From contig JAOUFI010000047.1 of assembly GCA_029858305.1 (NCBI GenBank), positions 1 through 17,924 on the forward strand: a stretch of DNA of 17,924 nt. Reading direction: 5' to 3'. Each line of letters starts with the position of its first letter. Within the stretch, counting starts at the first letter, position 1. This DNA comes from Candidatus Thorarchaeota archaeon (GTDB lineage: Archaea; Asgardarchaeota; Thorarchaeia; Thorarchaeales; Thorarchaeaceae). The notes under the pieces were generated by a model. The model made no database searches. It had not been told where the DNA came from and saw nothing but the letters and a program-made list of their open reading frames with translations. This document shows positions 148-17,250 of the stretch, piece by piece. Position numbers and translations under genes: made by a program.

Positions 148-1236
148 GTGAGTATGCTCTGCCCAGACCACACGAAAGCCGAGAAACTGGCATCTGCAGT
201 ACTAGGTTATTGTGGATCATGCCTTGCAGAGAAAGGAGAATTAGTTTCAAGCATTTTGGTTAAACACGAAGATCTGAGAAAAACTTCTGGCCTTGTCGGT
301 TCAGTACCAAGAGATGGTATAGTTGTGTGCGTTGAATGTGGTAACCAATGCAGGCTTGATGAGAGCGAAACTGGATTTTGTGGTCTTAGATATGCATCAG
401 ACTCAAAAGTACTAGAGAATTTTCCTGACCGAGCAATTGTTTCATGGTACTTTGATCCTATTCCGACCAACTGCACTGCAGATTGGGTGTGTTCAGTGAG
501 TCAGGAGAGAAAGCCGCATAAGCTTGGTGCAAAATTGAACAATCTTGCAGTGTTCTACGGTTCTTGCAACTCCGATTGTTTCTTTTGCCAGAATGCTAGC
601 CACAAACAGATGACTGTTGCTGGACGACCATTGATGTCCCCATTGGAATTAGCGGATGCAGTCGATAGCAAAACGGCGTGTGTTTGTTACTTTGGTGGAG
701 ACCCTGGGTGCAATTCAAAACACTCTCTAGCTTCATCAGCACACATTCGTGACAAATGGAATATACCAATCTGCTATGAGACCAATGGCAATATCTCTCG
801 TAAGTATCTAGATAGAATTGCTGAGATTGTTCTGCAGAGTCATGGTACGCTCAAGTTCGATCTGAAAGCAGTCAGCCCGAACCTGTATCGAGCGCTCACA
901 GGAGTATCCAATGAGACTGTCATGCGCAACTTCAGACACCTAGCGAAGGCTGGAAGGAATAGAGACCATGAGTTCTTGGTGGCAAGCATACTACTAGTTC
1001 CGGGCTATGTTGGGATTTCTGAAACAGAGCGTTTGTGTAAATTTATTGCAGAGTGTGATGTTACTATTCCTACAGTGCTTCTCGGTTTTTATCCTCACAA
1101 CTATATGCGCGATCTACCAAGAACGAGCCGGCGTCATGCGTATGAAAGTAAAAAAGCAGCAGAAACCGCTGGTTTGACGAATGTTAGGATTGGCAACATA
1201 AACCTTCTATCTGAGGTACAATACAACATCGAATAA
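148..1236 (+). CDS. Radical SAM protein, PFL-activating-enzyme-like (PflA/COG1180-type) with Cys-rich N-terminus
   Basis: CxxxCxxC motif (CNSDCFFC), YFGGDP and YETNG motifs, KFDLKA, and extra N-terminal Cys clusters (CGSC, CVECGNQC, GFCG). GTG start. Confidence 0.85.
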   Translation: MSMLCPDHTKAEKLASAVLGYCGSCLAEKGELVSSILVKHEDLRKTSGLVGSVPRDGIVVCVECGNQCRLDESETGFCGLRYASDSKVLENFPDRAIVSWYFDPIPTNCTADWVCSVSQERKPHKLGAKLNNLAVFYGSCNSDCFFCQNASHKQMTVAGRPLMSPLELADAVDSKTACVCYFGGDPGCNSKHSLASSAHIRDKWNIPICYETNGNISRKYLDRIAEIVLQSHGTLKFDLKAVSPNLYRALTGVSNETVMRNFRHLAKAGRNRDHEFLVASILLVPGYVGISETERLCKFIAECDVTIPTVLLGFYPHNYMRDLPRTSRRHAYESKKAAETAGLTNVRIGNINLLSEVQYNIE

Positions 1237-2651: not shown

Positions 2652-3989
2652 GTGCTTACGCGTGTTCAGAAAATTTACTATGGAATGGCTCGTCTTGGTC
2701 CAAGCATAATGCTTGATATGCTGGACTTGGCAAGCGCTCTGTTCTATTTCTCAATCCAAGCGCTACCAGCAATTTACACCGGTTCTGCGATAGCTTTGAG
2801 TTATCTCTCAATTATGTTGTCAGAGTTGATATTTGGAAATATGAGTGATAGAACAGCCACAAAAAGGTGGGGACGACGAAAACCGTATGTTATGGTTGGA
2901 GCTCCACTCATGGCTATGTCGTTCTTATTGGTTTTCAATCCGCACTTGTTCCTAGCGCAGGGCAATGTGATAGGTCTCTTCTTCTACGCCGCAATTACAA
3001 TGAGTCTGTTCAAAGTATTTTATGGTATGACAATGACTCCGTTCCAAGCCTGGATGCCTGAACTCACTGAACCTGATGAGCGTCCTGCGGTTTCTTCATG
3101 GCAGAATGTTGCTAATTTCACTGGATTTGTTATTGGCACATTTGGAACCAGTTTTCTGGCTATTGAGGCTGTAGGATGGGGTCTCCCAAGCACAATTCTC
3201 TACATGATCTTAGGCTTTGTTGCCATCCAGCTTCTAGGCTTCGCTCCATCACTAATAGGTCTCCACAGGGAAGGTAAGTTCATACCACAGCCTGATATCT
3301 TCAAGGATCTTGGCGATGCATTAACTGATAGAGACTATGTTGGTTGGCTTTTTGCTCAAGGACTCCTTTCGGTCGGCATCGCCACTATTGTTAGAACCAC
3401 ATTTCCGTACATCAATGACTATCTGTTGTTTGGTATGACCGAACTCATTATCTTTGGAGTGGAACTCCTCTCGGTTGTCTTTGTATTTTTCATTATTTTC
3501 CAATTTAGCATCCGAAAGAAAGGCAAACGTTTCACACTGCAGCTTTCTATGATGTTGGCTGTGGTTTCGCTTCCCTTCACCCTGATAATCACAACTTCAT
3601 CTGCTGCCTTTATTCTCCTAGCATTTGTTGGTGCTGGCGTTGCTGGATACTACCTGATGCCATACATTATTTACGCGGATTTCGCCCATAAGAATGAGAT
3701 ATTGACTGGAGAGGGCAAGGCAGGACTCTACACCAGCTTTCCATCAATTCCACTGAATGGTATGCAGGCTTTCTCAGCTATTCTATGGGGCTTCATTTTT
3801 TCGCTACCAGAAGTTGTCCCTGTTCCAGGCCAAGCTACCTTCGTCACACAGGGGTATCTGTTTTGGGGACCAATAGCAGCGTTGTTTCTCTTCCTCTCTG
3901 TGTTAGTACTCTTCAAAGTTAATATTGACCCGCACTTTGAGAAACTGAAGGAGGAATCTCCTTCCTCTGGGCTTGAAATCAATCCATAA
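2652..3989 (+). CDS. MFS transporter, GPH/MelB-like (MFS_2) glycoside:cation symporter family
   Basis: About 12 hydrophobic segments, FGNMSDRT..RWGRRKPY loop motif, PELTEPDERP and a D-x8-GEGKAGLY motif. GGAGGAG Shine-Dalgarno before the GTG start. Confidence 0.88.
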   Translation: MLTRVQKIYYGMARLGPSIMLDMLDLASALFYFSIQALPAIYTGSAIALSYLSIMLSELIFGNMSDRTATKRWGRRKPYVMVGAPLMAMSFLLVFNPHLFLAQGNVIGLFFYAAITMSLFKVFYGMTMTPFQAWMPELTEPDERPAVSSWQNVANFTGFVIGTFGTSFLAIEAVGWGLPSTILYMILGFVAIQLLGFAPSLIGLHREGKFIPQPDIFKDLGDALTDRDYVGWLFAQGLLSVGIATIVRTTFPYINDYLLFGMTELIIFGVELLSVVFVFFIIFQFSIRKKGKRFTLQLSMMLAVVSLPFTLIITTSSAAFILLAFVGAGVAGYYLMPYIIYADFAHKNEILTGEGKAGLYTSFPSIPLNGMQAFSAILWGFIFSLPEVVPVPGQATFVTQGYLFWGPIAALFLFLSVLVLFKVNIDPHFEKLKEESPSSGLEINP

Positions 3990-4018
3990 TACAATGTGGC
4001 TTTGGATTGCTTGGGCTT

Positions 4019-6844
4019 TTACACATTGAAGCTACACATCTTAATCTCTCTTGCTCCAAAAGTGAGCATTATGCTATGAGTTGAGAGTTGGAGTTTCTTG
4101 ATGATAGACCCATCTATTCTCACCTCTGATGCAGTCTTAATACGCTCTGCAAGTTCCAGTTGGACATCAATATCTCTATTTTCAATGTTATAGAGTGTTG
4201 TCAGAACGGAATTCCCGCGAATTCTTAATGAGGATATTCTCACTGCTGGATTCTTAAATTGGATAATAGGATCAAAGAGGCTCTGCGGAGGTTCAGCATG
4301 ATCCAACACAATCGCCAATGGTCGATTTTGAAATATGTCTGATTGCTCTGCACTCATCGCCAGTTGCTCCTTACGAGAGTGAACAAGAAATCCATAATGA
4401 AACTCGTACTCCTTGTTCATTTCTTGAGCGCCTGGTGTCTCCTCTGCTGGCCCTGCATGCATAGGTCTCTCGGGGAAATCTGAACGCGACAACCATCCAA
4501 CACAACGAAGCATTGTCACAGCTATTCGATATCCATCAACGAGCTCTACTTCAGGTAGTCCATTGTTGAGAACTGTAATAGCATCAGTTCCTTTTTCATC
4601 CTCAACTCGTATGAATCCTTTCTGAGGCTGGATGCCTGACGGTTTCTCAGGATAGTCTGCCATTGTTCTCTCTAATTCTTCCGCGTCGGGTATTGATTCT
4701 GCATTTGATGAACGTCTAACTGTCCCAAAATGGGTTGCTGTCAAAGTAGAACTCGATTTGAACGGAAGATCAAAGCATATTCGAAGGCGGTGGTCTTTCG
4801 CAGTATTTGTGAGTTTGGTCGTCACTTCAATCCTTGGAGTATCACGATAGAATCTAAACGATGAAAACACCGATATTTCCGCTTTCCCAATTCGCTTCTC
4901 TCTGGCGGGGTCAAGAGAATCATAGACTTCTAGTATAAGCGTTTGATGGATCTCTGCCAAGATAGGACCTGAGCTTATAACAGACCGCTTGACATCCTTC
5001 ACTCTAACTTTTTCTGGCTCAAGTCTACCAAAACTATATTCATCGCCACGATCGCCGTAGTCCTCGAAGACATGAAGTTTCGGATATTGCACTCCACTTT
5101 CTTTATTGATGAGAGTCAGGGTTCCATCTTTGTTAAATGACACAGAGTAGAACTTGTTTTCGACACGATTCTCATTTGCTTCGAAACGATTTTCGGTTAG
5201 AGATTCTGGCAGCTCCGCCACTATTTTGAGCTTTGAGAAAGTCCATGGTTTTAAGGTGACGACTGCCGCATATACATTCTGAGTAGGACGAGCAGCAACA
5301 AGGTGAATCTTCTTGTATTTCTTGTTGCCCAGTATCTCATTAGCCTCGTGTTTTAGGCTCTCCATATCGAAGTCGCCCACAGGATGCCTGTCTGCAATGA
5401 ACCTTAGTTCTAGTAGACCTGGCTCATCTCCATCAAAATATTCTACGCCATTAATATAGAAGTCCATCAACTTCCTGCCAGGAAGTAATCTCATTCCCAT
5501 TTTAGCAGCTGTCATGCCTAGGGTGGTATCCAAGAAGATGTCCTCTCTGGATTTTAGTTGTTGTGCATCGAATATTCTTCCATCCTCTGTACGGAGCCCC
5601 TTTACAGTTGCACCTCTTGGATATGAGAATTCGAAATAGACTGGTGTCGATGAGCTGCCCCCCGAGTTGAAGACAACAACAGATGATTCGTCACATGGTT
5701 CAGCAATCCTGTGGATACTCTTTTCTGCCTCCTTAAGTGCTCCTTCGCAGATTGACTCAGCCCATGAGAACCGAGCCTTCATCTCTTCATGTGTCTGATC
5801 CACCGAGCAGCCGCATATCGAATCATGAGGTTGATTCTGTAGGAGCCATTTCCATGATGTCTTCAAGAATCCATTTGGATATTCAAATTTCAGAGTGGAT
5901 GACAAGTAGGCCCAGATTGGCTCAACTTTTCGTGTCAGTATGTCCTCTATTTTCTGGTTCCACTGCTTAATCCACATTCGAGCCGAGTAGGTGTCCTGAA
6001 GGAGATGTGCTCTTGCAGGAGATCTAAACTCACCTCCGTAGACAGGACGTTCACCTCCTGATTCTGAAACCTGAGTGTCGAGTTCCTCGATGAACGCCTT
6101 TAGCGTAGATACAGAAATGTCAAGGTCTTTTGTTGCCATTCGTTTTGCATATTCCTTGGCAAATGGCTGTGGAAAGCGATGGTCAGAGCCATTCATGAGA
6201 AGGTAGACTTGTACAGGAGAGAATGGTTCCAGTTCTGCTATCTTCTCATTGACTGACTTGGTGAACTCCTCATAATCTTCTGGAAGCATAGATGCATTGC
6301 CATAGCCATGTGGGAGATAGACTCCCTTGACAGATGTTTTAGAACTCTCATGAGATTTCCAGATAAACGGAACCGATGTGATGCTTGGTGGTACACCTCG
6401 CCAGAGTGCAACAGTTTCAAGAGTGGTTAGGTCACCAAGAAGCTGAGGCATCCCACTTGTGTGCCCAAACTGATCGGGAAGGTAGGCGATATCCATGAGA
6501 GGTATTTTGAATTCTTTCCCAAGATCATGACCAAACTCAAGGTTGCGGATAAGACTCTCACCCCCGACCAGCCACTCATCAGGAAGAAGATACCAAGGTC
6601 CTACTGATACTTTGCCCTGCCTAATTCGTTGCAGTAATTCCTCCTTTTTTTCTGGGCGTATTTCCATGTAGTCCTCCAGAACTATTGTCTGCCCGTCTAG
6701 CATAAACACGTAGTCTTGACCTTCCAATATCTTGAGAAGCTCATCGATTAGTTGGACGAGATTGTATCTAAACCTCTGGAATGGGAGGTACCACTCTCGA
6801 TCCCAATGTGTGTGTGGTACGATGAAAACCCTCTTGGATACCAT
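4019..6844 (-). CDS. Glycoside hydrolase family 38 alpha-mannosidase (MngB/mannosylglycerate hydrolase-like)
   Basis: VPHTHWDREWY Zn-binding motif, LDGQT, GPWY..PDE, catalytic PDQFGH, NGSDH, NQPHDSICGCSVD, and C-terminal KDHRLR and TMLRCVGWLSR. Confidence 0.93.
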   Translation of the reverse strand: MVSKRVFIVPHTHWDREWYLPFQRFRYNLVQLIDELLKILEGQDYVFMLDGQTIVLEDYMEIRPEKKEELLQRIRQGKVSVGPWYLLPDEWLVGGESLIRNLEFGHDLGKEFKIPLMDIAYLPDQFGHTSGMPQLLGDLTTLETVALWRGVPPSITSVPFIWKSHESSKTSVKGVYLPHGYGNASMLPEDYEEFTKSVNEKIAELEPFSPVQVYLLMNGSDHRFPQPFAKEYAKRMATKDLDISVSTLKAFIEELDTQVSESGGERPVYGGEFRSPARAHLLQDTYSARMWIKQWNQKIEDILTRKVEPIWAYLSSTLKFEYPNGFLKTSWKWLLQNQPHDSICGCSVDQTHEEMKARFSWAESICEGALKEAEKSIHRIAEPCDESSVVVFNSGGSSSTPVYFEFSYPRGATVKGLRTEDGRIFDAQQLKSREDIFLDTTLGMTAAKMGMRLLPGRKLMDFYINGVEYFDGDEPGLLELRFIADRHPVGDFDMESLKHEANEILGNKKYKKIHLVAARPTQNVYAAVVTLKPWTFSKLKIVAELPESLTENRFEANENRVENKFYSVSFNKDGTLTLINKESGVQYPKLHVFEDYGDRGDEYSFGRLEPEKVRVKDVKRSVISSGPILAEIHQTLILEVYDSLDPAREKRIGKAEISVFSSFRFYRDTPRIEVTTKLTNTAKDHRLRICFDLPFKSSSTLTATHFGTVRRSSNAESIPDAEELERTMADYPEKPSGIQPQKGFIRVEDEKGTDAITVLNNGLPEVELVDGYRIAVTMLRCVGWLSRSDFPERPMHAGPAEETPGAQEMNKEYEFHYGFLVHSRKEQLAMSAEQSDIFQNRPLAIVLDHAEPPQSLFDPIIQFKNPAVRISSLRIRGNSVLTTLYNIENRDIDVQLELAERIKTASEVRIDGSIIKKLQLSTHSIMLTFGAREIKMCSFNV

Positions 6845-8145: not shown

Positions 8146-8226
8146 CGCTATTCTCTTTGTTATCTATTTTACTTCTTCTTGAACATTGTTGCTGAACTTT
8201 ATATTTCTACGAACACAATTGCACAT

Positions 8227-8565
8227 ATGTCAGAAGGAATTTTAGTAGTTACACTTCCACATCTTCCAGGCTATCGGATTATTCGTGTACTGGGGACAGT
8301 TCATGGACTTACAGTTAGGACGAGAGGTGTGGGGGGAAAGATTTCTGCAGGAATAAGTGGAATTTTTGGTGGCGAAGTACACTCCTATACAGAAGAATGT
8401 GAAAGATCAAAAGCTGAAGCACTAGTAAGATTAAGAGAAAATGCACAACAGATGGGTGCAAACGCAGTCATAGGTGCTGATTTTGAAACTAGTGATATTC
8501 TTGCGGGAACAGCCACGGTCTTTTCAGCATATGGGACTGCAGTTATTGTAGAAGCAGAATATTAG
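8227..8565 (+). CDS. ybjQ: YbjQ/UPF0145 family putative heavy-metal-binding protein
   Basis: VVTLPHLPGYRI..VLGTVHG, GGEVHSY, MGANAVIG and AYGTAV are characteristic of UPF0145. ATG 8227 is preferred over TTG 8179. Confidence 0.9.
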   Translation: MSEGILVVTLPHLPGYRIIRVLGTVHGLTVRTRGVGGKISAGISGIFGGEVHSYTEECERSKAEALVRLRENAQQMGANAVIGADFETSDILAGTATVFSAYGTAVIVEAEY

Positions 8566-8757
8566 TTACTCTTAGGAAGCTCTCATAGGAGCAAGTTTGT
8601 ATGAGTATTAATCCCATCGTTATCATAGTTTTCATAGAGAATGCCACTGATCCTCGCAGAGATAATCTATCGCCTACTTGACACATTTGGATGGAAAAAT
8701 CAAGTACGCTTTATACTATTAGCACTTATTAGAGAGATTAAGTATATTCCAAATGTT

Positions 8758-9030
8758 ATGAAAGTCACTCGGGTCGCTGTTGCAGAGCGTAATTACCTGA
8801 GGGGCATACTCAGGACTTATCTGCTCGGCAAGAAGAATCAGAACTATGTTATTGGTTGTTTCAGAAATGTTCCTATCAAGGTCTTTGATGAGGTTGCCAA
8901 AGAACTTGTGGAATATGCACAGCTACCCAGATTTCAGGAGCTTTATACGATTAGAAAACTCTTGGAGGAGGCTCTAAATAAAAGCGAGTCGAGGACAAAG
9001 TGGAGTCCTTGGGTTATTAGCCAATACTAG
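8758..9030 (+). CDS. Small hypothetical protein (~90 aa)
   Basis: Fills the gap between ybjQ and the phosphoesterase with a natural-looking composition from MKVTRVAVAER. Its stop overlaps the convergent gene's stop (CTAG 9027-9030). No family recognised. The start could be 8641. Confidence 0.6.
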   Translation: MKVTRVAVAERNYLRGILRTYLLGKKNQNYVIGCFRNVPIKVFDEVAKELVEYAQLPRFQELYTIRKLLEEALNKSESRTKWSPWVISQY

Positions 9031-10236: not shown

Positions 10237-11991
10237 CTACCACCATCCTAAGATAATTGCCAAGAGATTGAAGGTTATTATCAGAGCACCACTAACTTTC
10301 AGCATCGTCACCATATATGGATATTCTCTTCTTATCACCTTTGGATCACTGACAGACGTCATTCCTGACCAGTCCATTGTCAGTGAGGTCGCCATAGCAA
10401 ACTGAAGTATCATCCATGTAACAATGACCGTCCAGTGAGATTGAAGTCCATACATTATTAGTGCCGCGAAAGGAAGAGTTCCTAAACCAAGTGCAACACC
10501 TCTCCTCCAGAAGGAGTTCCCTTTTGCGGGCAATACAGGGAAGAATACTCCCAATATGAAGGCGTTTCCAAACAGCGCTATGTTAAACTCCGCTATGAGA
10601 ATAATGATATTGAGTACTGCTGAAAGAATCTCTTGGTAAAAGACTGGGAGAATAACAAGGAGTCCTAACCCACCAAAGAGTGATATTGCCAGGATTGCCA
10701 GTATTGGCTTTGCAAGGATTGCTGCATACAAGAATGGAATATGCGCAACTGTTTGCTCCATTCTCTCACGCAAATTAAAAGTGACAATTGCCATCTTTCT
10801 AGGTTTGGGTCGGGGTTTTCCAAGGTTCAACCATTTACCTAAATCATGAATTCTAACAGGGCCATAACGGGCTCTGAATCCTGTACGTTCACGTATCTCA
10901 GTTGGATTCATTCCAGCTGCGGCAAGCTGTGGCAATAGAATCTCTCTGTGAGTAACAAACTCAGACAATCTTGTTATCCTGATCATCTGAATCACATCTT
11001 CTGTTTTGAAGTGAATTCCCCGGGCCGCACACCAGACATTAATTCCAGCTGTGTCGCACACAAGCACCCATGCATCCAAATTGTCTTTGGATAGAGCTCT
11101 CATGACAGTATAATACGTCAGCTCATAGTTTGCAGTAACAATTACAGGGCTATCTTGATTTGGATTCCCGGCTCTGTACAATCCCGGATTGATGGGTATC
11201 CCTCTCCATCCTCCAGTAACGTGATTGTACCAAATCCTGGCTCGTGCTTTTATTCCATGGTAAACCAGTTTTCTATTCTGATACTGATTGGATATGACTT
11301 CACTACCCCTCTTTCCAATTATGAGCGAGATTTCATGACCATACTGTTCTACTGTATCGATTTCTAGACCCATCTCTTTTGCTAGGGATGGAAGGTCTTC
11401 AATAGGATACGGCAGCCGCTTCTTGGCCTCCTTCTCTGCCAGGGAGCGGTTTTTCCAAAACTGATTCAGCTGTGACTTATCCTGAGGAATGACTTCAGAG
11501 GCAATCGCGAATGTACCATCATCTTTCAAAAGACTCTGTACAATATGCATGAAAAGATGCCTTTGATGTGGCTTCAGCTCTGATAAGAGAAAGGTGCTCA
11601 CAATAAGGTCGTATTCTCCCTTTGGCAGTGCTTTTGGATCAAAATCAGCCTTTCTTCGCGCCTCTGCGGTTTCAGAGTCAGTGTATTCCTCCAGTTGCAG
11701 AATATTCTCGGAGATGAAATTCGGGGGAGTTTCCAAAAGAGAAGCTCTTTTTCTCGCAATCGATATCATTTGATCGTTCGCATCAATCCCAACAACTTGA
11801 GCTCCTTTCCTTGATGCCTCGATTGCAAGAAGGCCGGGGCCACACCCAAGGTCAAGAACGCTCATTCCGGGTTTTACTAAGTCCAGAATCCTGCTTCTAA
11901 TCCTGCTGGCTCGCCCTTCAAGTACTTCATCAAACTCGTTGTCGTAACTCTCAGGAGTCTTCTCCAATGCAGCCATGAATGCAACAGCCAT
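10237..11991 (-). CDS. hgcA: Fusion: N-terminal class I SAM methyltransferase + HgcA-like (CdhD/CFeSP-type) corrinoid domain + C-terminal transmembrane domain
   Basis: Methyltransferase motif I VLDLGCGPG, VGID and YDLIVS. HgcA-like blocks PGLY..G.P...SPVIVTANY.LT, WVLVCDTAGINVWCAARG (11017-11040, Cys321), LLPQLAAAG, TGF...YGPVR..DL and VTF...ER. About 5 TM helices follow, ending in MDWSGMTSVS. Symbol means hgcA-like; activity is unproven. Confidence 0.8.
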   Translation of the reverse strand: MAVAFMAALEKTPESYDNEFDEVLEGRASRIRSRILDLVKPGMSVLDLGCGPGLLAIEASRKGAQVVGIDANDQMISIARKRASLLETPPNFISENILQLEEYTDSETAEARRKADFDPKALPKGEYDLIVSTFLLSELKPHQRHLFMHIVQSLLKDDGTFAIASEVIPQDKSQLNQFWKNRSLAEKEAKKRLPYPIEDLPSLAKEMGLEIDTVEQYGHEISLIIGKRGSEVISNQYQNRKLVYHGIKARARIWYNHVTGGWRGIPINPGLYRAGNPNQDSPVIVTANYELTYYTVMRALSKDNLDAWVLVCDTAGINVWCAARGIHFKTEDVIQMIRITRLSEFVTHREILLPQLAAAGMNPTEIRERTGFRARYGPVRIHDLGKWLNLGKPRPKPRKMAIVTFNLRERMEQTVAHIPFLYAAILAKPILAILAISLFGGLGLLVILPVFYQEILSAVLNIIILIAEFNIALFGNAFILGVFFPVLPAKGNSFWRRGVALGLGTLPFAALIMYGLQSHWTVIVTWMILQFAMATSLTMDWSGMTSVSDPKVIRREYPYMVTMLKVSGALIITFNLLAIILGWW

Positions 11992-11996
11992 AATAG

Positions 11997-12386
11997 TTAC
12001 TCTCCAAGAAAATCAATCAATTGAAGCATGGATTCTCTCTTGTTGTCATCGAGACCGTAGTATGTCCAACGGCCACGCCTTTCGCTCTTGAGCCATCCGG
12101 CCTCATGCATTTTTCTAAGATGATGCGACATAAGTGGTTGCCTTGGTTCATTCAAAGCATATTGAAACTCGCATACACAAGCATCCTCAATTTTGAGAAG
12201 CAACATAACAATGCCAGTTCTCAAAGTGGCTGTGAAGATTTCCGGACTCACTGATGAGAAGGCCTGTCTGAATCCCTCGATTGTTGCTCTTCTTTTGTCA
12301 TAAGGTTCACAGTATGGCGCTTTATCCGGAACTGTTTTACAATATTTTTCGAGGTTCTCAATTCGTTCAATATGCTCTTTATGCAT
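11997..12386 (-). CDS. arsR: ArsR/SmtB-family metalloregulator with CVC motif
   Basis: ACVCEF (alpha3 metal-binding motif), QPLMSHHLRKMHEAGW helix-turn-helix, ERRGRWTYY wing, and extra N-terminal Cys16 and Cys26. Stop lies 5 bp before the fusion gene start. Confidence 0.9.
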   Translation of the reverse strand: MHKEHIERIENLEKYCKTVPDKAPYCEPYDKRRATIEGFRQAFSSVSPEIFTATLRTGIVMLLLKIEDACVCEFQYALNEPRQPLMSHHLRKMHEAGWLKSERRGRWTYYGLDDNKRESMLQLIDFLGE

Positions 12387-12395
12387 GTAGTTTGT

Positions 12396-12425
12396 ATCAA
12401 TCTAGTTTATATAAATCTGATGAAT
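12396..12425 (-). promoter_or_regulatory. TATA box of leaderless arsR transcript overlapped by putative ArsR operator
   Basis: Palindromic TTTATATAAA at 12406-12415, about 25 nt upstream of the arsR ATG, with no Shine-Dalgarno. It sits within two tandem imperfect 15-mers, ATTCATCAGATTTAT and ATAAACTAGATTGAT (10/15 identical). Confidence 0.55.
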
Positions 12426-12608: not shown

Positions 12609-12694
12609 AAAAAGAGAATGAACAGGAGCCCCGAACCGAGACTCCTATTGACCTTCGATGGTCTAAATGGGCTCAAAGTCTTCTTTTGCTGCTC
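12609..12694 (-). repeat. Copy 2 of rubredoxin 3' end + terminator (86 bp, 79/86 identical to 14476-14561)
   Basis: Ungapped alignment shows 7 mismatches, 4 of them in the hairpin loop, and the last 37 bp are identical. Encodes (G)AAKEDFEPI*. The repeat begins at the G of the LRR gene's TAG stop. Confidence 0.95.
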
Positions 12695-14391
12695 TAGTCC
12701 TTTATCTTCCACCATGGAATATTCCTATTTTGAACTATCCACCATATGGTTTGTTTCAGCTTGTCACTCATCCTCACGTCTGAAGTTGAGGTTTTACCAG
12801 TTCTTAATTTGAATCCTAACTCTGAGAGAGTCTTTTTGACTAGTTTTAAGTCTTCATGGTTGGCAGTCGGGGGTATTCCAAGAGTGGTTAAGATGTTATA
12901 GCCATAGGCAGTTAGATACAGCTCTCTCAGGTCAACTTCCGTTTTACTCGCTCCAACAATTACCTGTCGCATTTCCTTCTCTCGAAGCTCGACAATCTGA
13001 TGCATTCTTTTTGCAATCTCACTATGTTGACCGCTAAGCCCCATAATGTTTAGACCCGTGGTTGCTCGCTCCTGATTTATAGCTTCAATGATTTCAATTA
13101 CTATTCTATCTATGACCTGCTCGCGAGCCAATTCGAAAGGAATGTCTTCAGGGATGGAGAGAAAGAGGTCAGCTAAATCACAGTCGATAAAACCGTAGTC
13201 CTTCAATCCCATCGCACACAAGATGTCTTGCTGCACCCGACAGTCCGCCTTAAAGTGTTCTGCAACTCTGTGCAGGAAGGGCCAAGGGTAGGAAGTTGTA
13301 GGTCGTTTATACACGCCCTCTCTTTTCTTAAGCCATGAATATTTCGCATGGATACCCTTGAACCGGGTTGCATCCAGCCAGAGCCTTCGCAACTTTGTAC
13401 AAAGAGCGAGGGGAGTCAGATCAATAGATTTGAGCTGATTGCCAGATAGCCCACATGATTGCAGGTTGGAGCAGGTTGCGAGAGGTGTCAGGTCGATGCT
13501 CTGTAGCTGGTTATTATCCAGAGGAAGTGCTTGCAGGTTGGCGCAGAATGCGAGAGGCGTTAGGTCGATGCTCTGTAGCTGGTTATCGAACAGATCGAGT
13601 TCCTGTAGGTTGATGCAAGCAGCAAGAGGTGCAAGGTCGATGGACTGAAGCTGGTTCTCTCTTAGTTGTAGTATGCGCAGGTTTGTACATTCCCTGAGTG
13701 GTGCCAGATCGATGGACTGGAGCTGGTTCGTTCTTAGTCCTAGTGTTTGCAAGTTAGTACATTGGCTGAGTGGTGCCAAGTCGATGGACCGGATATAGTT
13801 GTGAAAAAGACTGAGTTCTTGGAGTTCCGTACATGTGGCGAGAGGTCTGAGATCGATGCTCTGGAGCTCATTTTCTCCTAGCTCGATTTTTCGCAGGTCG
13901 ATACAGGTAGCAAGGCTGCCTAGATTGATGGACTGAAGTTTGTTATGATACAGATGGAGTTTTTGTAGGTATGTGCAGTTAGCAATACTGGTCAGATTGA
14001 TAGACTGAAATTGGTTCCCACTCAGATTAAGCTCTAGCAGATAGGAACAAGCGGCAAGGGGTGTTAAATCGATGGACTGGAGCTTAGCTTCCAGAAAAAG
14101 ATACTCCAGCTTGCTACAAGAGCTGAGAGGTTTTAGATCTATTGTCTGAAGATTGTTACGAGTAAGTGCAAGCCATCTTAGGCTGGTGCAAGTTGCAAGA
14201 GGCGTCAAGTCGATAGTCTGGAGTTCGTTATCAGTCAGCTTTAGTGTTTGGAGGCTGGTGCAGGCAGTAAGAGGAAATAAGTCGACATTTGCTATTTTCC
14301 GGTAGGAGAGGTTAATCTCGACGGCATCATCTGCAAACTCAGCCCGTTCCTCCACGCCATTCTCTGTCGTATATCTCAGTGCAATCGTCAT
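12694..14391 (-). CDS. Leucine-rich repeat protein (24-aa Cys-containing LRRs) with unknown C-terminal domain
   Basis: About 13 repeats of LxxLxLxxNQLQSIDLxPLAxCxx followed by a ~220-aa non-repetitive C-terminus. No signal peptide or TM segment seen. Confidence 0.92.
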   Translation of the reverse strand: MTIALRYTTENGVEERAEFADDAVEINLSYRKIANVDLFPLTACTSLQTLKLTDNELQTIDLTPLATCTSLRWLALTRNNLQTIDLKPLSSCSKLEYLFLEAKLQSIDLTPLAACSYLLELNLSGNQFQSINLTSIANCTYLQKLHLYHNKLQSINLGSLATCIDLRKIELGENELQSIDLRPLATCTELQELSLFHNYIRSIDLAPLSQCTNLQTLGLRTNQLQSIDLAPLRECTNLRILQLRENQLQSIDLAPLAACINLQELDLFDNQLQSIDLTPLAFCANLQALPLDNNQLQSIDLTPLATCSNLQSCGLSGNQLKSIDLTPLALCTKLRRLWLDATRFKGIHAKYSWLKKREGVYKRPTTSYPWPFLHRVAEHFKADCRVQQDILCAMGLKDYGFIDCDLADLFLSIPEDIPFELAREQVIDRIVIEIIEAINQERATTGLNIMGLSGQHSEIAKRMHQIVELREKEMRQVIVGASKTEVDLRELYLTAYGYNILTTLGIPPTANHEDLKLVKKTLSELGFKLRTGKTSTSDVRMSDKLKQTIWWIVQNRNIPWWKIKD

Positions 14392-16125: not shown

Positions 16126-16593
16126 CTATTTATGTTTGAGCACATGAACTATCTCTTCTTCTAGAGTATCTTTTACGGTCGGTTTCTCGATGAGCGTGCC
16201 AACTTTTTTTCCTTCTGCGTCAAAGAAGACAAACCAGGGTATTGCAGTAGCACCCCACTCGTTGATTTCTGGAGGTGAAGGCGGAACTCTCCATTTGGCA
16301 GCTTTGTTCAGTGGATCTGTCTTGATATCGCCAAACACCATGATATCAAGATCAGTTTTCTCTTCAATATGAAGCATGACCGGCATAGCTCTCTTGCAGT
16401 CACCGCACCAAGCGGCACTGAAAATGACAACCTTCAGTCCCTTCACCAATCTCTTTAGTTCCTTCAAAGCTTCCGCATTAAGACGGTATTCCTTGTATGC
16501 CTCCATTACGATATCTTTGTCTTTCTCGGATAAGGCAGCAATGTATCCTCTTACATTCGTCGACCTTTTCCTGATGTCATTGAAATCTATCAT
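16126..16593 (-). CDS. Thioredoxin-family protein (WCGDC)
   Basis: FSAAWCGDC active site, cis-Pro motif AIPWF and IEKP. ATG 16593 is preferred over 16683. Confidence 0.88.
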   Translation of the reverse strand: MIDFNDIRKRSTNVRGYIAALSEKDKDIVMEAYKEYRLNAEALKELKRLVKGLKVVIFSAAWCGDCKRAMPVMLHIEEKTDLDIMVFGDIKTDPLNKAAKWRVPPSPPEINEWGATAIPWFVFFDAEGKKVGTLIEKPTVKDTLEEEIVHVLKHK

Positions 16594-16716
16594 TAGTCTA
16601 AAAAATGGAAATGGGCATTCTAAAACCCTTCGATTTGTATTCTTCAAAAGCATGAGTAATGCTGATAAGTGACATACGAGCATCTCTCTATAGGGACTAG
16701 CAAACTGGTGGAATAG

Positions 16717-17250
16717 TTGGTAGCAGAGCTTTACAAGGCAATCATTGTGGGAGCGCCTAGTGTCGGGAAATCAAGCCTTGTCAGACGCTACCAGACAAAC
16801 GAGTTCAGAGAGGATCACACCGCTACTGTGGCTGCTGACCTTAGTGCGATTGCATTTGATTTTCCTGAAGGAAAAGTTGTGCTAACAGTCGTTGATGTCG
16901 GCGGTCAAGAGACCTTTGCAGGACTTCGAAACAGATTCTATGAAGGAGCACATCACCTAATCATGGTATATGATATGACCAATAAAGAGACCTTCAAGCG
17001 AATCACTCCTCTTCATGAAGCTCTCACAGACAAGATTTGCATTCAACGTGACAAATTCTTGGGTGGCTCTCTAGTAGCTAATAAGTGCGACTTGAAGAAC
17101 GAAGCAGTGATTACCGAACAAGAAGGTCGTTTACTAGCAGATCTACTTCAGCTTGATTATATTGAGACCTCAGCAAGAACTGGGCATAATGTGCCTGAAA
17201 TGTTCTTACATGCAGCTACGGAGTCTCGACGATTACGCCATAATATCTAA
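16717..17250 (+). CDS. Ras-superfamily (Rab-like) small GTPase
   Basis: G1 GAPSVGKS, G2 T (HTATV), G3 DVGGQE, G4 NKCD and G5 ETSAR, plus RFYEGA and VYDMT. No C-terminal prenylation Cys. Confidence 0.93.
   Translation: MVAELYKAIIVGAPSVGKSSLVRRYQTNEFREDHTATVAADLSAIAFDFPEGKVVLTVVDVGGQETFAGLRNRFYEGAHHLIMVYDMTNKETFKRITPLHEALTDKICIQRDKFLGGSLVANKCDLKNEAVITEQEGRLLADLLQLDYIETSARTGHNVPEMFLHAATESRRLRHNI

Follow-up and report, generated by a model that had tools for sequence, protein, structure and literature searches.

What does a protein do in which a methyltransferase that uses S-adenosylmethionine (SAM) and a relative of the mercury-methylation corrinoid protein HgcA are joined in one chain? This question is raised by a contig of 17,924 nucleotides from a Candidatus Thorarchaeota archaeon (JAOUFI010000047.1 in assembly GCA_029858305.1), the whole of which was analysed and is hereafter referred to as the window; the genome to which it belongs amounts to 3.04 Mb and is 88.9% complete. 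One gene in the window encodes a class I SAM methyltransferase of the corrinoid protein-associated methyltransferase (CpaM) type fused to a membrane-anchored HgcA-like corrinoid protein. We consider it probable that this natural fusion works as a module that moves a methyl group from SAM, by way of a Co(I)-corrinoid, to a soft metal or metalloid.

The fused gene is intact

An earlier note on this DNA, made from its letters without database searches, had described an uninterrupted open reading frame of 584 amino acids at positions 10237–11991, in which a class I SAM methyltransferase is followed by an HgcA-type corrinoid domain and a membrane anchor. The frame is indeed there, with an ATG start and without any internal stop; the coordinates stand as given, and the strand had to be corrected to minus (Table 1). 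No stop or frameshift, one of the findings that the note had named as refuting its proposal, was seen between the domains. The domain junction (approximately 11259–11319) is bridged without a gap by a contig from an independent sequencing run (X3 record 20, corresponding to window positions 10798–11424). The 23 variant sites listed within the gene comprise 15 synonymous and 8 missense changes and 0 stops, and no insertion or deletion over the operon was found among those listed for public contigs of four runs, two of which (X3 and X4) cover the gene in part. A single contig of run X2 contains a joint that skips 460 nt; its shorter side is 24 letters long, and we judged it to come from another organism or from an assembly effect.

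The same arrangement recurs in relatives. At 28 of the 29 further loci from Asgard archaea a single open frame runs through the methyltransferase and HgcA-like parts, the remaining locus being cut by the end of its contig, and both methyltransferase Pfam models together with PF03599 are matched by 115 of the 120 best homologues listed, which have similar lengths (540–590 amino acids). Thus, the fusion is real.

Domain composition and predicted structure

The N-terminal domain was recognised by class I methyltransferase models of Pfam over residues ~25–213 (Methyltransf_23, E 5.8e-17). Its top NCBIfam family is CpaM (NF043040), which aligned with residues 4–218 at 128.5 bits (E 2.3e-37; profile positions 3–205 of 216), the next methyltransferase of the same genome reaching only 70.2 bits. 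The note had likened the N-terminus to methyltransferases associated with corrinoid proteins, and the likeness holds in kind, the score lying below the family cut-off of 180 bits. We also built a hidden Markov model (HMM) of the methyltransferase domain from 22 fused proteins; it gave 263 bits on the window protein (positions 1–214) and 240–263 bits on the cognates, as against at most 64 bits, over partial length, on generic methyltransferases of the window's own genome. In a 116-row alignment of full-length homologues, G49, G51, G53, D70, E138 and E166 of this domain are invariant, as are the family-specific positions L9, E10, P13 and Y16 of an N-terminal helix. The SAM-binding motif I (VLDLGCGPG) and the acidic post-I residue D70, both expected of a CpaM protein, are thus kept throughout. 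The only cysteine of the domain, C50, lies inside motif I, and the arsenite methyltransferase model NF008823 gave 25.3 bits against its cut-off of 263.

The remainder of the protein passed the superfamily model PF03599 (CdhD; 82.8 bits, cut-off 24.8). Among the more specific models, HgcAB_like (NF043039) matched residues 262–551 with 208.5 bits (profile positions 11–282 of 350; cut-off 285), leaving its ferredoxin tail unmatched, and HgcA (NF040863) matched residues 267–572 with 192.7 bits (cut-off 275), while CdhE (NF003195) gave 97 bits against 306. The cap-helix cysteine is Cys321, within GINVWCAARG, exactly where the note had put it. It is one of just three cysteines in the protein (50, 312 and 321), and the segment N318-V-W-C321-A-A around it is invariant across the 116 homologues.

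An AlphaFold2 model of the full chain, made with the 116 homologues, has a mean predicted local distance difference test score (pLDDT) of 90.2 and a predicted template modelling score (pTM) of 0.85, with no stretch below 50; the linker between the methyltransferase and corrinoid domains is short and modelled with confidence. Five C-terminal helices (residues 407–447, 449–486, 494–515, 520–542 and 550–583), with which hydropathy is concordant, make up the membrane anchor that the note had seen. In Foldseek searches the top match was the integrative HgcAB model 9a0b (E 7e-12, 30% identity, 315 columns), followed for the N-terminal domain by the class I SAM methyltransferases CysG (Kitasatospora), MM_2633, ChlM, PH0226 and 6mro. 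Residues 256–380 aligned with the C-terminal domain of the CFeSP (corrinoid iron-sulfur protein) large subunit (2h9a/4c1n, residues 309–431, E 8e-12), with the cap-helix cysteine at the place of a CFeSP threonine. A prediction of the complex of residues 1–235 with residues 240–584 in the presence of SAM, run without controls, gave scores of 0.23 and 0.07, where the mark is 0.32, and is counted here neither for nor against the proposal. We are highly confident of the identity of the parts.

Table 1. Positions in the window of the fused gene, its parts and the adjoining elements of the operon
Feature	Position	Strand	Basis and remarks
Fused methyltransferase::HgcA-like gene	10237..11991	minus	ATG start, 584 aa, no internal stop; stop codon 10237–10239
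CpaM-type methyltransferase domain, residues 1–232	11296..11991	minus	Pfam and NCBIfam matches, own HMM, alignment
SAM-binding motif I VLDLGCGPG, residues 45–53	11833..11859	minus	G49, G51 and G53 invariant
Corrinoid-binding (CFeSP/HgcA-type) domain, residues ~262–400	10792..11208	minus	CFeSP alignment, NF043039 and NF040863, Foldseek 9a0b_A
Codon TGT of cap-helix Cys321 (N318-V-W-C-A-A323)	11029..11031	minus	All six positions invariant, 116 homologues
Membrane domain, residues 407–583, five long helices	10243..10773	minus	AlphaFold2 secondary structure, hydropathy
HgcB-like 2x[4Fe-4S] ferredoxin, 109 aa	9904..10233	minus	Pfam Fer4_7, NF043039 tail, NF040864; ATG 3 nt past the fused-gene stop
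ArsR/SmtB-type regulator, 129 aa, CVC motif	11997..12386	minus	PF01022, NF033788; stop 5 nt before the fused-gene ATG
TTTATATA, TATA-box-like octamer, candidate archaeal promoter of arsR, the fused gene and the hgcB-like gene	12408..12415	minus	29 nt upstream of the arsR ATG; sequence reading

Affiliation of the HgcA-like part

We searched 1.84 billion representative sequences with residues 236–584 and obtained 1089 relatives at E ≤ 1e-3, 90 of them at E ≤ 1e-30. Writing MT, A and B for the methyltransferase, HgcA-like and ferredoxin modules, the best 150 relatives comprised MT-A (n = 10), MT-A-B (n = 4) and A-B proteins (n = 18) and proteins with neither fusion (n = 118). The cap motif tracks the architecture: the unfused proteins have NVWCAAGK or near variants of it, and every protein fused to a methyltransferase or a ferredoxin ends the motif otherwise (AARG, AAGG, SAAG, ASRG, AACG or AASE). 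Ten anchor proteins were scored with the NCBIfam models. Two with WCAAGK (P0134 and P0142) passed the HgcA model at 389.4 and 385.1 bits, and three ferredoxin-fused proteins (P0198, P0186 and P0175) passed HgcAB_like at 396, 371.4 and 328.3 bits. The MT-A proteins matched HgcAB_like (176–235 bits) better than HgcA (162–199 bits), both below the cut-offs. The CpaM cut-off was passed by the fused relatives P0075, P0175, P0216 and P0230 (218–283 bits) and failed by P0071 (140.5 bits) and P0058 (144.4 bits); P0075, a fused homologue from Hodarchaeales with 223.6 bits against the cut-off of 180, is labelled CpaM by NCBI.

We then placed the window protein in a tree of 86 rows (IQ-TREE, LG+C20+F+G4, quick search) chosen from the listed homologues and from the relatives found with residues 236–584; fragments were dropped, and the 85 canonical rows were thinned at random to 28. 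The genome's own CdhD and CdhE served as the outgroup, whose placement, on long branches, is unreliable. Canonical HgcA formed a clade of 31 rows with a support (SH-like approximate likelihood ratio test, SH-aLRT) of 100, and the window protein lay outside it. A Thor group (7 rows, support 100) and a Loki/Hermod/Odin group (14 rows, support 100) united at a support of 98, and the ferredoxin-fused proteins grouped more loosely (27 rows, support 80). The same four groups were found when 34 rows, 12 of them canonical, were reanalysed under LG+G4 (canonical 100, A-B 95, Thor 100).

The window protein has the cap-helix cysteine of HgcA, equivalent to Cys93 of strain ND132, and a C-terminal multi-helix membrane domain. 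It falls short of HgcA in the NF040863 score, the cap motif and its place in the tree: six cap motifs have been put forward as a high-stringency criterion for true hgcA, and NVWCAARG is absent from the list as given there (Capo et al., 10.1101/2022.03.14.484253). With a sub-cut-off score, a cap that lacks the final GK and a position outside the canonical clade, it is, as judged from sequence, HgcA-like in the wide sense and not a canonical HgcA. The corrinoid domain of the note is therefore HgcA-like, as it had said (208.5 and 192.7 bits with HgcAB_like and HgcA, 97 bits with CdhE, and 9a0b as the top structure), without being that of canonical HgcA. On balance, we favour its membership in the paralogue lineage termed 'HgcAB-like'. 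It accords with this family in being accompanied by a CpaM-type methyltransferase, here as an N-terminal fusion, and departs from it in having its ferredoxin in a separate open reading frame and not at its C-terminus.

A grouping of the corrinoid domain with CdhD or CdhE, against which the note had warned, is not seen in the HMM scores or in the structural match; the superfamily model is passed, and only the corrinoid domain aligns with these proteins, the N-terminal [4Fe-4S] domain and the TIM-barrel domain expected of them being absent. A genuine CdhE and a genuine CdhD are encoded on another contig of the genome, which contains no further PF03599 protein, so this organism uses corrinoids.

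Comparison with known systems specifies the difference. The closest counterpart is the pair of NCBIfam families CpaM and HgcAB-like (for instance the HgcAB fusion protein from Pyrococcus furiosus), which has the same three modules in the same order, MT-A-B, likewise with a cap motif that does not end in GK, and whose HgcAB_like model is the best for the corrinoid part of the window protein. The break point, however, has moved: the window has MT::A and a separate B, whereas the NCBIfam pair has a separate MT and A::B. Furthermore, the window proteins score below the cut-offs of all three NCBIfam models, and the Thor/Loki MT-A proteins form a clade of their own (support 98). With canonical HgcA and HgcB (NF040863 and NF040864; Pseudodesulfovibrio mercurii ND132) the locus shares a CFeSP-type corrinoid domain, the cap cysteine in NVWC, a five-helix membrane domain, a ferredoxin with GxGC and a C-terminal CC, a nearby ArsR-type regulator and SAM as the likely methyl source; it differs in the extra SAM methyltransferase domain of 232 residues, never seen at 29 canonical loci, and in AARG in place of AAGK. 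With CFeSP (AcsC/AcsD or CdhE/CdhD) and its methyltransferase MeTr it has in common a homologous corrinoid-binding domain, and it would share loading by a dedicated methyltransferase and reduction by Fe-S clusters. The putative loader in the fused protein is, in contrast, a Rossmann-fold SAM enzyme and not a TIM-barrel methyl-pterin enzyme, and its corrinoid protein is anchored in the membrane and has a cap cysteine for threonine.

CpaM-type methyltransferases accompany HgcAB-like proteins

With our own HMM we surveyed 80 species-representative loci at which an HgcAB-like protein fused to a ferredoxin is encoded; Dehalococcoidia, Anaerolineae, Deltaproteobacteria, Bathyarchaeia, Thermococcaceae, Methanococcoides, Heimdall- and Baldrarchaeota are among the groups that they represent. 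A CpaM-type gene with at least 100 bits lay immediately upstream on the same strand at 68 loci, and CpaM-type sequence was present in the same open frame at nine, so that the two are adjacent or fused at 77 of the 80. Two loci gave weak scores (94.7 bits, and 68 bits for a gene cut by the contig end), and the last had no such gene, its contig stopping there. In contrast, no CpaM-type gene was found within 3 kb of any of 29 canonical WCAAGK loci (0/29), two of which bear unrelated methyltransferases of 32 bits. The contrast loci derive from a search that returned 600 stretches, 170 of them relatives; of the 80 stretches kept, most held either canonical hgcA or methyltransferases of an unrelated kind. 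Three more loci of that set, all non-canonical, do have a CpaM-type gene. The linkage between CpaM and HgcAB-like proteins is near-obligate.

The fusions themselves arose repeatedly. On the 86-row tree the state of the methyltransferase fusion changed at least six times, and that of the ferredoxin fusion likewise at least six times. Repeated independent fusion of the same partners indicates a physical and functional partnership, and the occurrence of the three modules in all possible combinations of fused and separate genes argues strongly that they function together.

One of these three loci, from an uncultured Nitrospina sp. (L122), has a CpaM-type gene with a product of 210 aa (3001–3630, 180.5 bits with our own HMM) directly preceding an HgcA-like gene (3627–4496) with the motif NVWCAAAEG. 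By this marker, the debated 'hgcA' of Nitrospina would group with the CpaM-linked paralogues. A 'UbiE methyltransferase' had been drawn beside the hgcA-like genes of Nitrospina by Villar et al. (10.1101/648329).

Two further variants were observed among the relatives. Some have, as a second paralogue, a single frame that comprises methyltransferase, HgcA-like protein and ferredoxin (L207 and L208; 685 and 713 aa), with the cap motifs NVWCASEAGK and NVWCASCGKN; L208 belongs to the same genus as the window, in whose 88.9% complete genome no such triple fusion was found. Four Asgard paralogue loci (L203–L206) have a single in-frame TGA exactly between the CpaM and HgcA-like parts. Selenocysteine in the cap helix was considered for this TGA and rejected, the codon standing between the MT and A parts at all four loci, most simply as the stop of a separate cpaM, in a search that lists in-frame cases only; one base change would interconvert the split and fused forms there.

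These data bear on two other functions that the protein might have. The N-terminal domain might be a self-standing methyltransferase of small molecules or metalloids, similar to ArsM or UbiE, whose fusion to the corrinoid protein is incidental or regulatory. Homologues are annotated as UbiE, cyclopropane-fatty-acid-synthase-like or UbiG, and weak PDB matches to arsenite methyltransferase structures (E 0.005–0.007) point the same way. ArsM-type arsenite methyltransferases, however, carry a set of conserved As(III)-binding cysteines, which the domain, with its one cysteine in motif I, does not have; as it offers no thiol site itself, it is unlikely to act directly in the manner of ArsM. As the specific family match is CpaM, and the domain is linked almost obligately, and recurrently fused, to corrinoid proteins, we regard this explanation as highly improbable, the naming of the Nitrospina neighbour as 'UbiE' (10.1101/648329) notwithstanding.

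The second is a Co(I) chemistry that does not methylate, such as reductive dehalogenation or the processing of halomethanes, with the methyltransferase as an accessory or unrelated part. A 2026 preprint describes that heterologously expressed HgcAB dechlorinates CCl4 besides methylating mercury (10.64898/2026.04.26.720869). That work is about canonical HgcAB, however, and such a function would leave unexplained both the methyltransferase attached or adjacent at 77 of 80 paralogue loci and its invariant SAM motif; we consider it very unlikely.

The operon and its surroundings

The regulator, the fused gene and the ferredoxin gene look like one operon (Table 1). The note had seen in the fused protein a self-contained methylation machine, which it is not: the HgcB-like ferredoxin is encoded by a separate gene 3 nt downstream. 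This ferredoxin matched profile positions 289–349 of NF043039 with 50.8 bits and the HgcB model NF040864 with 46.3 bits (cut-off 99). It has two CX2CX2CX3C motifs, the sequence GCGCIWN and a C-terminal SCC...SCCG tail. The G-C-G-C-I-W-N past the second cluster and the C-terminal CC(G) tail are common to the HgcB-like proteins; canonical HgcB proteins (n = 18) have G-V-G-C-A at the same place, as aligned by eye, and mostly a Cys-rich C-terminal tail. The other Asgard loci, in 28 cases out of 29, likewise have a separate HgcB-like open reading frame directly downstream. In canonical HgcB, C73, C94 and C95 are reported to be crucial to mercury methylation (PMC11588087).

The regulator scored 50.8 bits with NF033788 (cut-off 55) and contains the motif A-C-V-C-E-F, whose CVC is kept in its orthologues. 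An ArsR-type gene precedes the fused gene at 9 Thor-group loci, out of 16 whose upstream sequence is long enough, and at 0 of 9 Loki-group loci. ArsR-like regulators beside hgcAB have been published (PMC7438021).

Four other neighbours in the window, namely a metallophosphoesterase, the open reading frame 8641–9030, a YbjQ-like protein and a protein with leucine-rich repeats (LRR), showed no recurrence in the records of 30 other Asgard loci, which have ~1.5 kb of flank each and one of which (L012) duplicates another (L175). Across all 31 records, the metallophosphoesterase, the frame 8641–9030 and the LRR protein match the window's own record alone, and the YbjQ-like protein matches none. The YbjQ-family protein ('putative heavy-metal-binding', PF01906, E 2.7e-31) is encoded at 8179–8565 on the plus strand, 1.3 kb downstream of the operon. 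The LRR protein, of 565 aa (12694–14391, minus strand), has a long run of repeats (LRR_8, E 2.3e-33) and a C-terminal half without a family match.

Elsewhere on the contig there are genes for a radical SAM protein (148–1236, plus strand), a protein of 941 aa resembling alpha-mannosidases of glycoside hydrolase family 38 (GH38; 4019–6844, minus strand) and a Thioredoxin_9 protein (16126–16683, minus strand), with no link to the operon seen for any of them. A Ras-family small GTPase of 177 aa (PF00071, E 1.4e-37) is encoded at 16717–17250 on the plus strand; Ras-family small GTPases are among the eukaryote-like signature proteins of Asgard archaea.

Proposed mechanism and its alternatives

From the composition of the operon and the invariant residues we infer the transfer of a methyl group from SAM to cobalt by the methyltransferase domain, the path of the electrons and the nature of the acceptor. 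The HgcB-like ferredoxin would reduce the corrinoid ligated by Cys321 to Co(I). The fused methyltransferase domain would bind SAM and use it to methylate Co(I) to CH3-Co(III), from which the methyl group would go to a thiophilic metal or metalloid. This acceptor may be presented at the membrane domain by the vicinal cysteines of the ferredoxin, in its GCGC motif and its C-terminal CC tail, and in the Thor lineage the ArsR-CVC regulator may make expression respond to a soft metal or metalloid. The note had given SAM as a reported methyl donor of HgcAB, and this is in print: with purified canonical HgcAB, SAM methylates Co(I), methyl-Co(III) is ligated by the thiolate of a Cys, and the electrons come from HgcB (PMC11588087). 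No SAM-binding site is named in that paper. The protein of the fused gene is well conserved and is probably a functional member of the HgcAB-like/CpaM system in a rearranged form. That its CpaM domain serves as the loader seems to us a probable role, and a metal or metalloid as the acceptor a tentative one.

Several points weigh against this proposal. Every curated score lies below its cut-off (CpaM 128.5 of 180 bits, HgcAB_like 208.5 of 285, HgcA 192.7 of 275 and HgcB 46.3 of 99). The trees do not settle the deep branching order, and with 34 rows a tree uniting the Thor group with the canonical clade was not rejected in the approximately unbiased test (p-AU 0.399, log-likelihood difference 3.2). 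Purified canonical HgcAB accepts the methyl group of SAM with no CpaM present (PMC11588087); the chemistry thus does not require a separate loader, and the methyltransferase domain might do something else. The suggestion of a metal or metalloid acceptor is drawn from cysteine motifs and the type of regulator; the ArsR-type gene stands at only 9 of 16 Thor-group and 0 of 9 Loki-group loci.

One alternative leaves the acceptor as in canonical HgcAB: the protein might truly methylate mercury, as an HgcA orthologue that has its SAM loader built in and by which methylmercury is made in Asgard archaea. The cap cysteine in its NVWCAA core, the HgcA-like membrane domain and the adjoining HgcB-like ferredoxin with a CC tail would suit such an enzyme, as would the ArsR-type regulator, found also beside canonical hgcAB (PMC7438021), SAM as the methyl donor of HgcAB (PMC11588087) and the p-AU value just given. 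Its NF040863 score of 192.7 bits, however, fails the cut-off of 275, where canonical representatives reach 385 and 389; NVWCAARG is outside the six motifs of Capo et al. (10.1101/2022.03.14.484253); the protein lies outside the canonical clade, itself supported at 100; and its hallmark CpaM occurs at 0 of 29 canonical loci. Moreover, none of the carriers of fused HgcAB-like proteins reported as tested has produced methylmercury (PMC4646819; 10.1101/2022.03.14.484253), a result which, as Podar et al. point out for P. furiosus, need not mean that the fused enzyme is incapable of it (PMC4646819). We consider a mercury methylase unlikely, and mercury is accordingly one of the less likely candidates for the acceptor.

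Another alternative concerns the loader. The SAM domain might be a repair module that re-methylates oxidised Co(II) by means of SAM and of electrons from the ferredoxin, the donor in turnover being another compound, for example a methyl-pterin or some methylated substrate. The model for this is the activation domain of methionine synthase (MetH), a SAM-binding domain fused to a cobalamin domain, which methylates cobalt with SAM and a low-potential electron donor; it does not have the class I Rossmann fold, and it uses SAM for repair only. No sequence similarity to the MetH activation domain was found in the searches made, none of which was aimed at MetH. A domain that binds SAM, a corrinoid protein and a ferredoxin of low potential would fit reductive reactivation, and the genome has the CdhD/E corrinoid system of the Wood-Ljungdahl pathway. 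No conserved gene of the TIM-barrel MeTr/MtrH type or of the MT1/MT2 type adjoins the fused gene, however, the four neighbours tested recurring in none of the 30 other Asgard-locus records (~1.5 kb of flank), and SAM is the donor in turnover in canonical HgcAB (PMC11588087). A repair module thus appears quite unlikely to us, and loading of the corrinoid from SAM by the CpaM domain remains the role that we favour.

A wider reading, which we put forward as doubtful, would extend this role to the whole family. The CpaM and HgcA-like modules, whether split or joined as MT::A, A::B or MT::A::B, would constitute a distinct and very widespread family of membrane-bound SAM/corrinoid methyltransferases, with CpaM as the obligatory loader. 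Their natural substrate would be some soft metal or metalloid but not mercury, except perhaps in certain lineages, for example that of the marine Nitrospina type. Canonical HgcAB, which has no CpaM at the loci examined, would be a derived branch that came to bind SAM itself.

Distribution and significance

Of 301 sampled genomes of the phylum, 141 gave a match at E ≤ 1e-20, with paralogues and the window's own genome included. Matches occur in 46 of the 90 high-quality genomes and in 9 of 24 genomes of the window's genus, and the carriers are named Thor-, Sif-, Prometh-, Odin-, Loki-, Hod- and Hermodarchaeota by their sources. DNA nearly identical to the operon was found in 20 public runs of nine studies (metagenomes of sediment, estuary, soil and sludge), mostly as small shares.

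Both families, CpaM and HgcAB-like, are already named in NCBIfam, and ferredoxin-fused HgcAB was described by Podar et al. 2015 (PMC4646819). Lin et al. 2023 placed sequences of Thor- and Lokiarchaeota in a 'fused-hgcAB' clade, after the first 327 'poorly aligned' columns of the HgcA alignment had been cut by hand (PMC10083202). The removed columns would hold the N-terminal methyltransferase domains of Asgard and other fused sequences, and the fusion may for that reason have escaped comment; the portions of that article available to us contain no mention of a methyltransferase. No published account of the MT::HgcA-like architecture or of the linkage to CpaM was found in the literature available to us; the supplementary trees of Lin et al. 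2023 may contain these sequences. The exact phrases 'corrinoid protein-associated methyltransferase', 'HgcAB-like fusion' and 'hgcA-like methyltransferase' are absent from the literature searched. What appears to be new here is the fused Asgard form, MT::A with a separate B, which is not a 'fused HgcAB'; the Asgard sequences that stand under this name in published trees have a different architecture.

HgcAB-like paralogues, a routine sight in metagenomes, get set aside, as outgroups or as sequences to be 'treated with caution', because the carriers tested make no methylmercury. Through the fusion, and the contrast between 77 of 80 and 0 of 29 loci that stands behind it, this family gains a SAM methyltransferase as the third component that defines it. 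The presence of CpaM together with a cap motif that does not end in GK can serve in surveys as a marker that separates the paralogues from true hgcA, the debated Nitrospina sequences included. The fusion is also genomic support, of the Rosetta-stone kind, for SAM as the methyl source of HgcA-type proteins, independent of the in vitro result of 2024, and a single chain that contains both the methyltransferase and the corrinoid protein is a handy object for studying how SAM reaches cobalt. If the wider reading of the family is true, the Asgard archaea of sediments would be producers of a methylated metal or metalloid under the control of an ArsR-CVC regulator.

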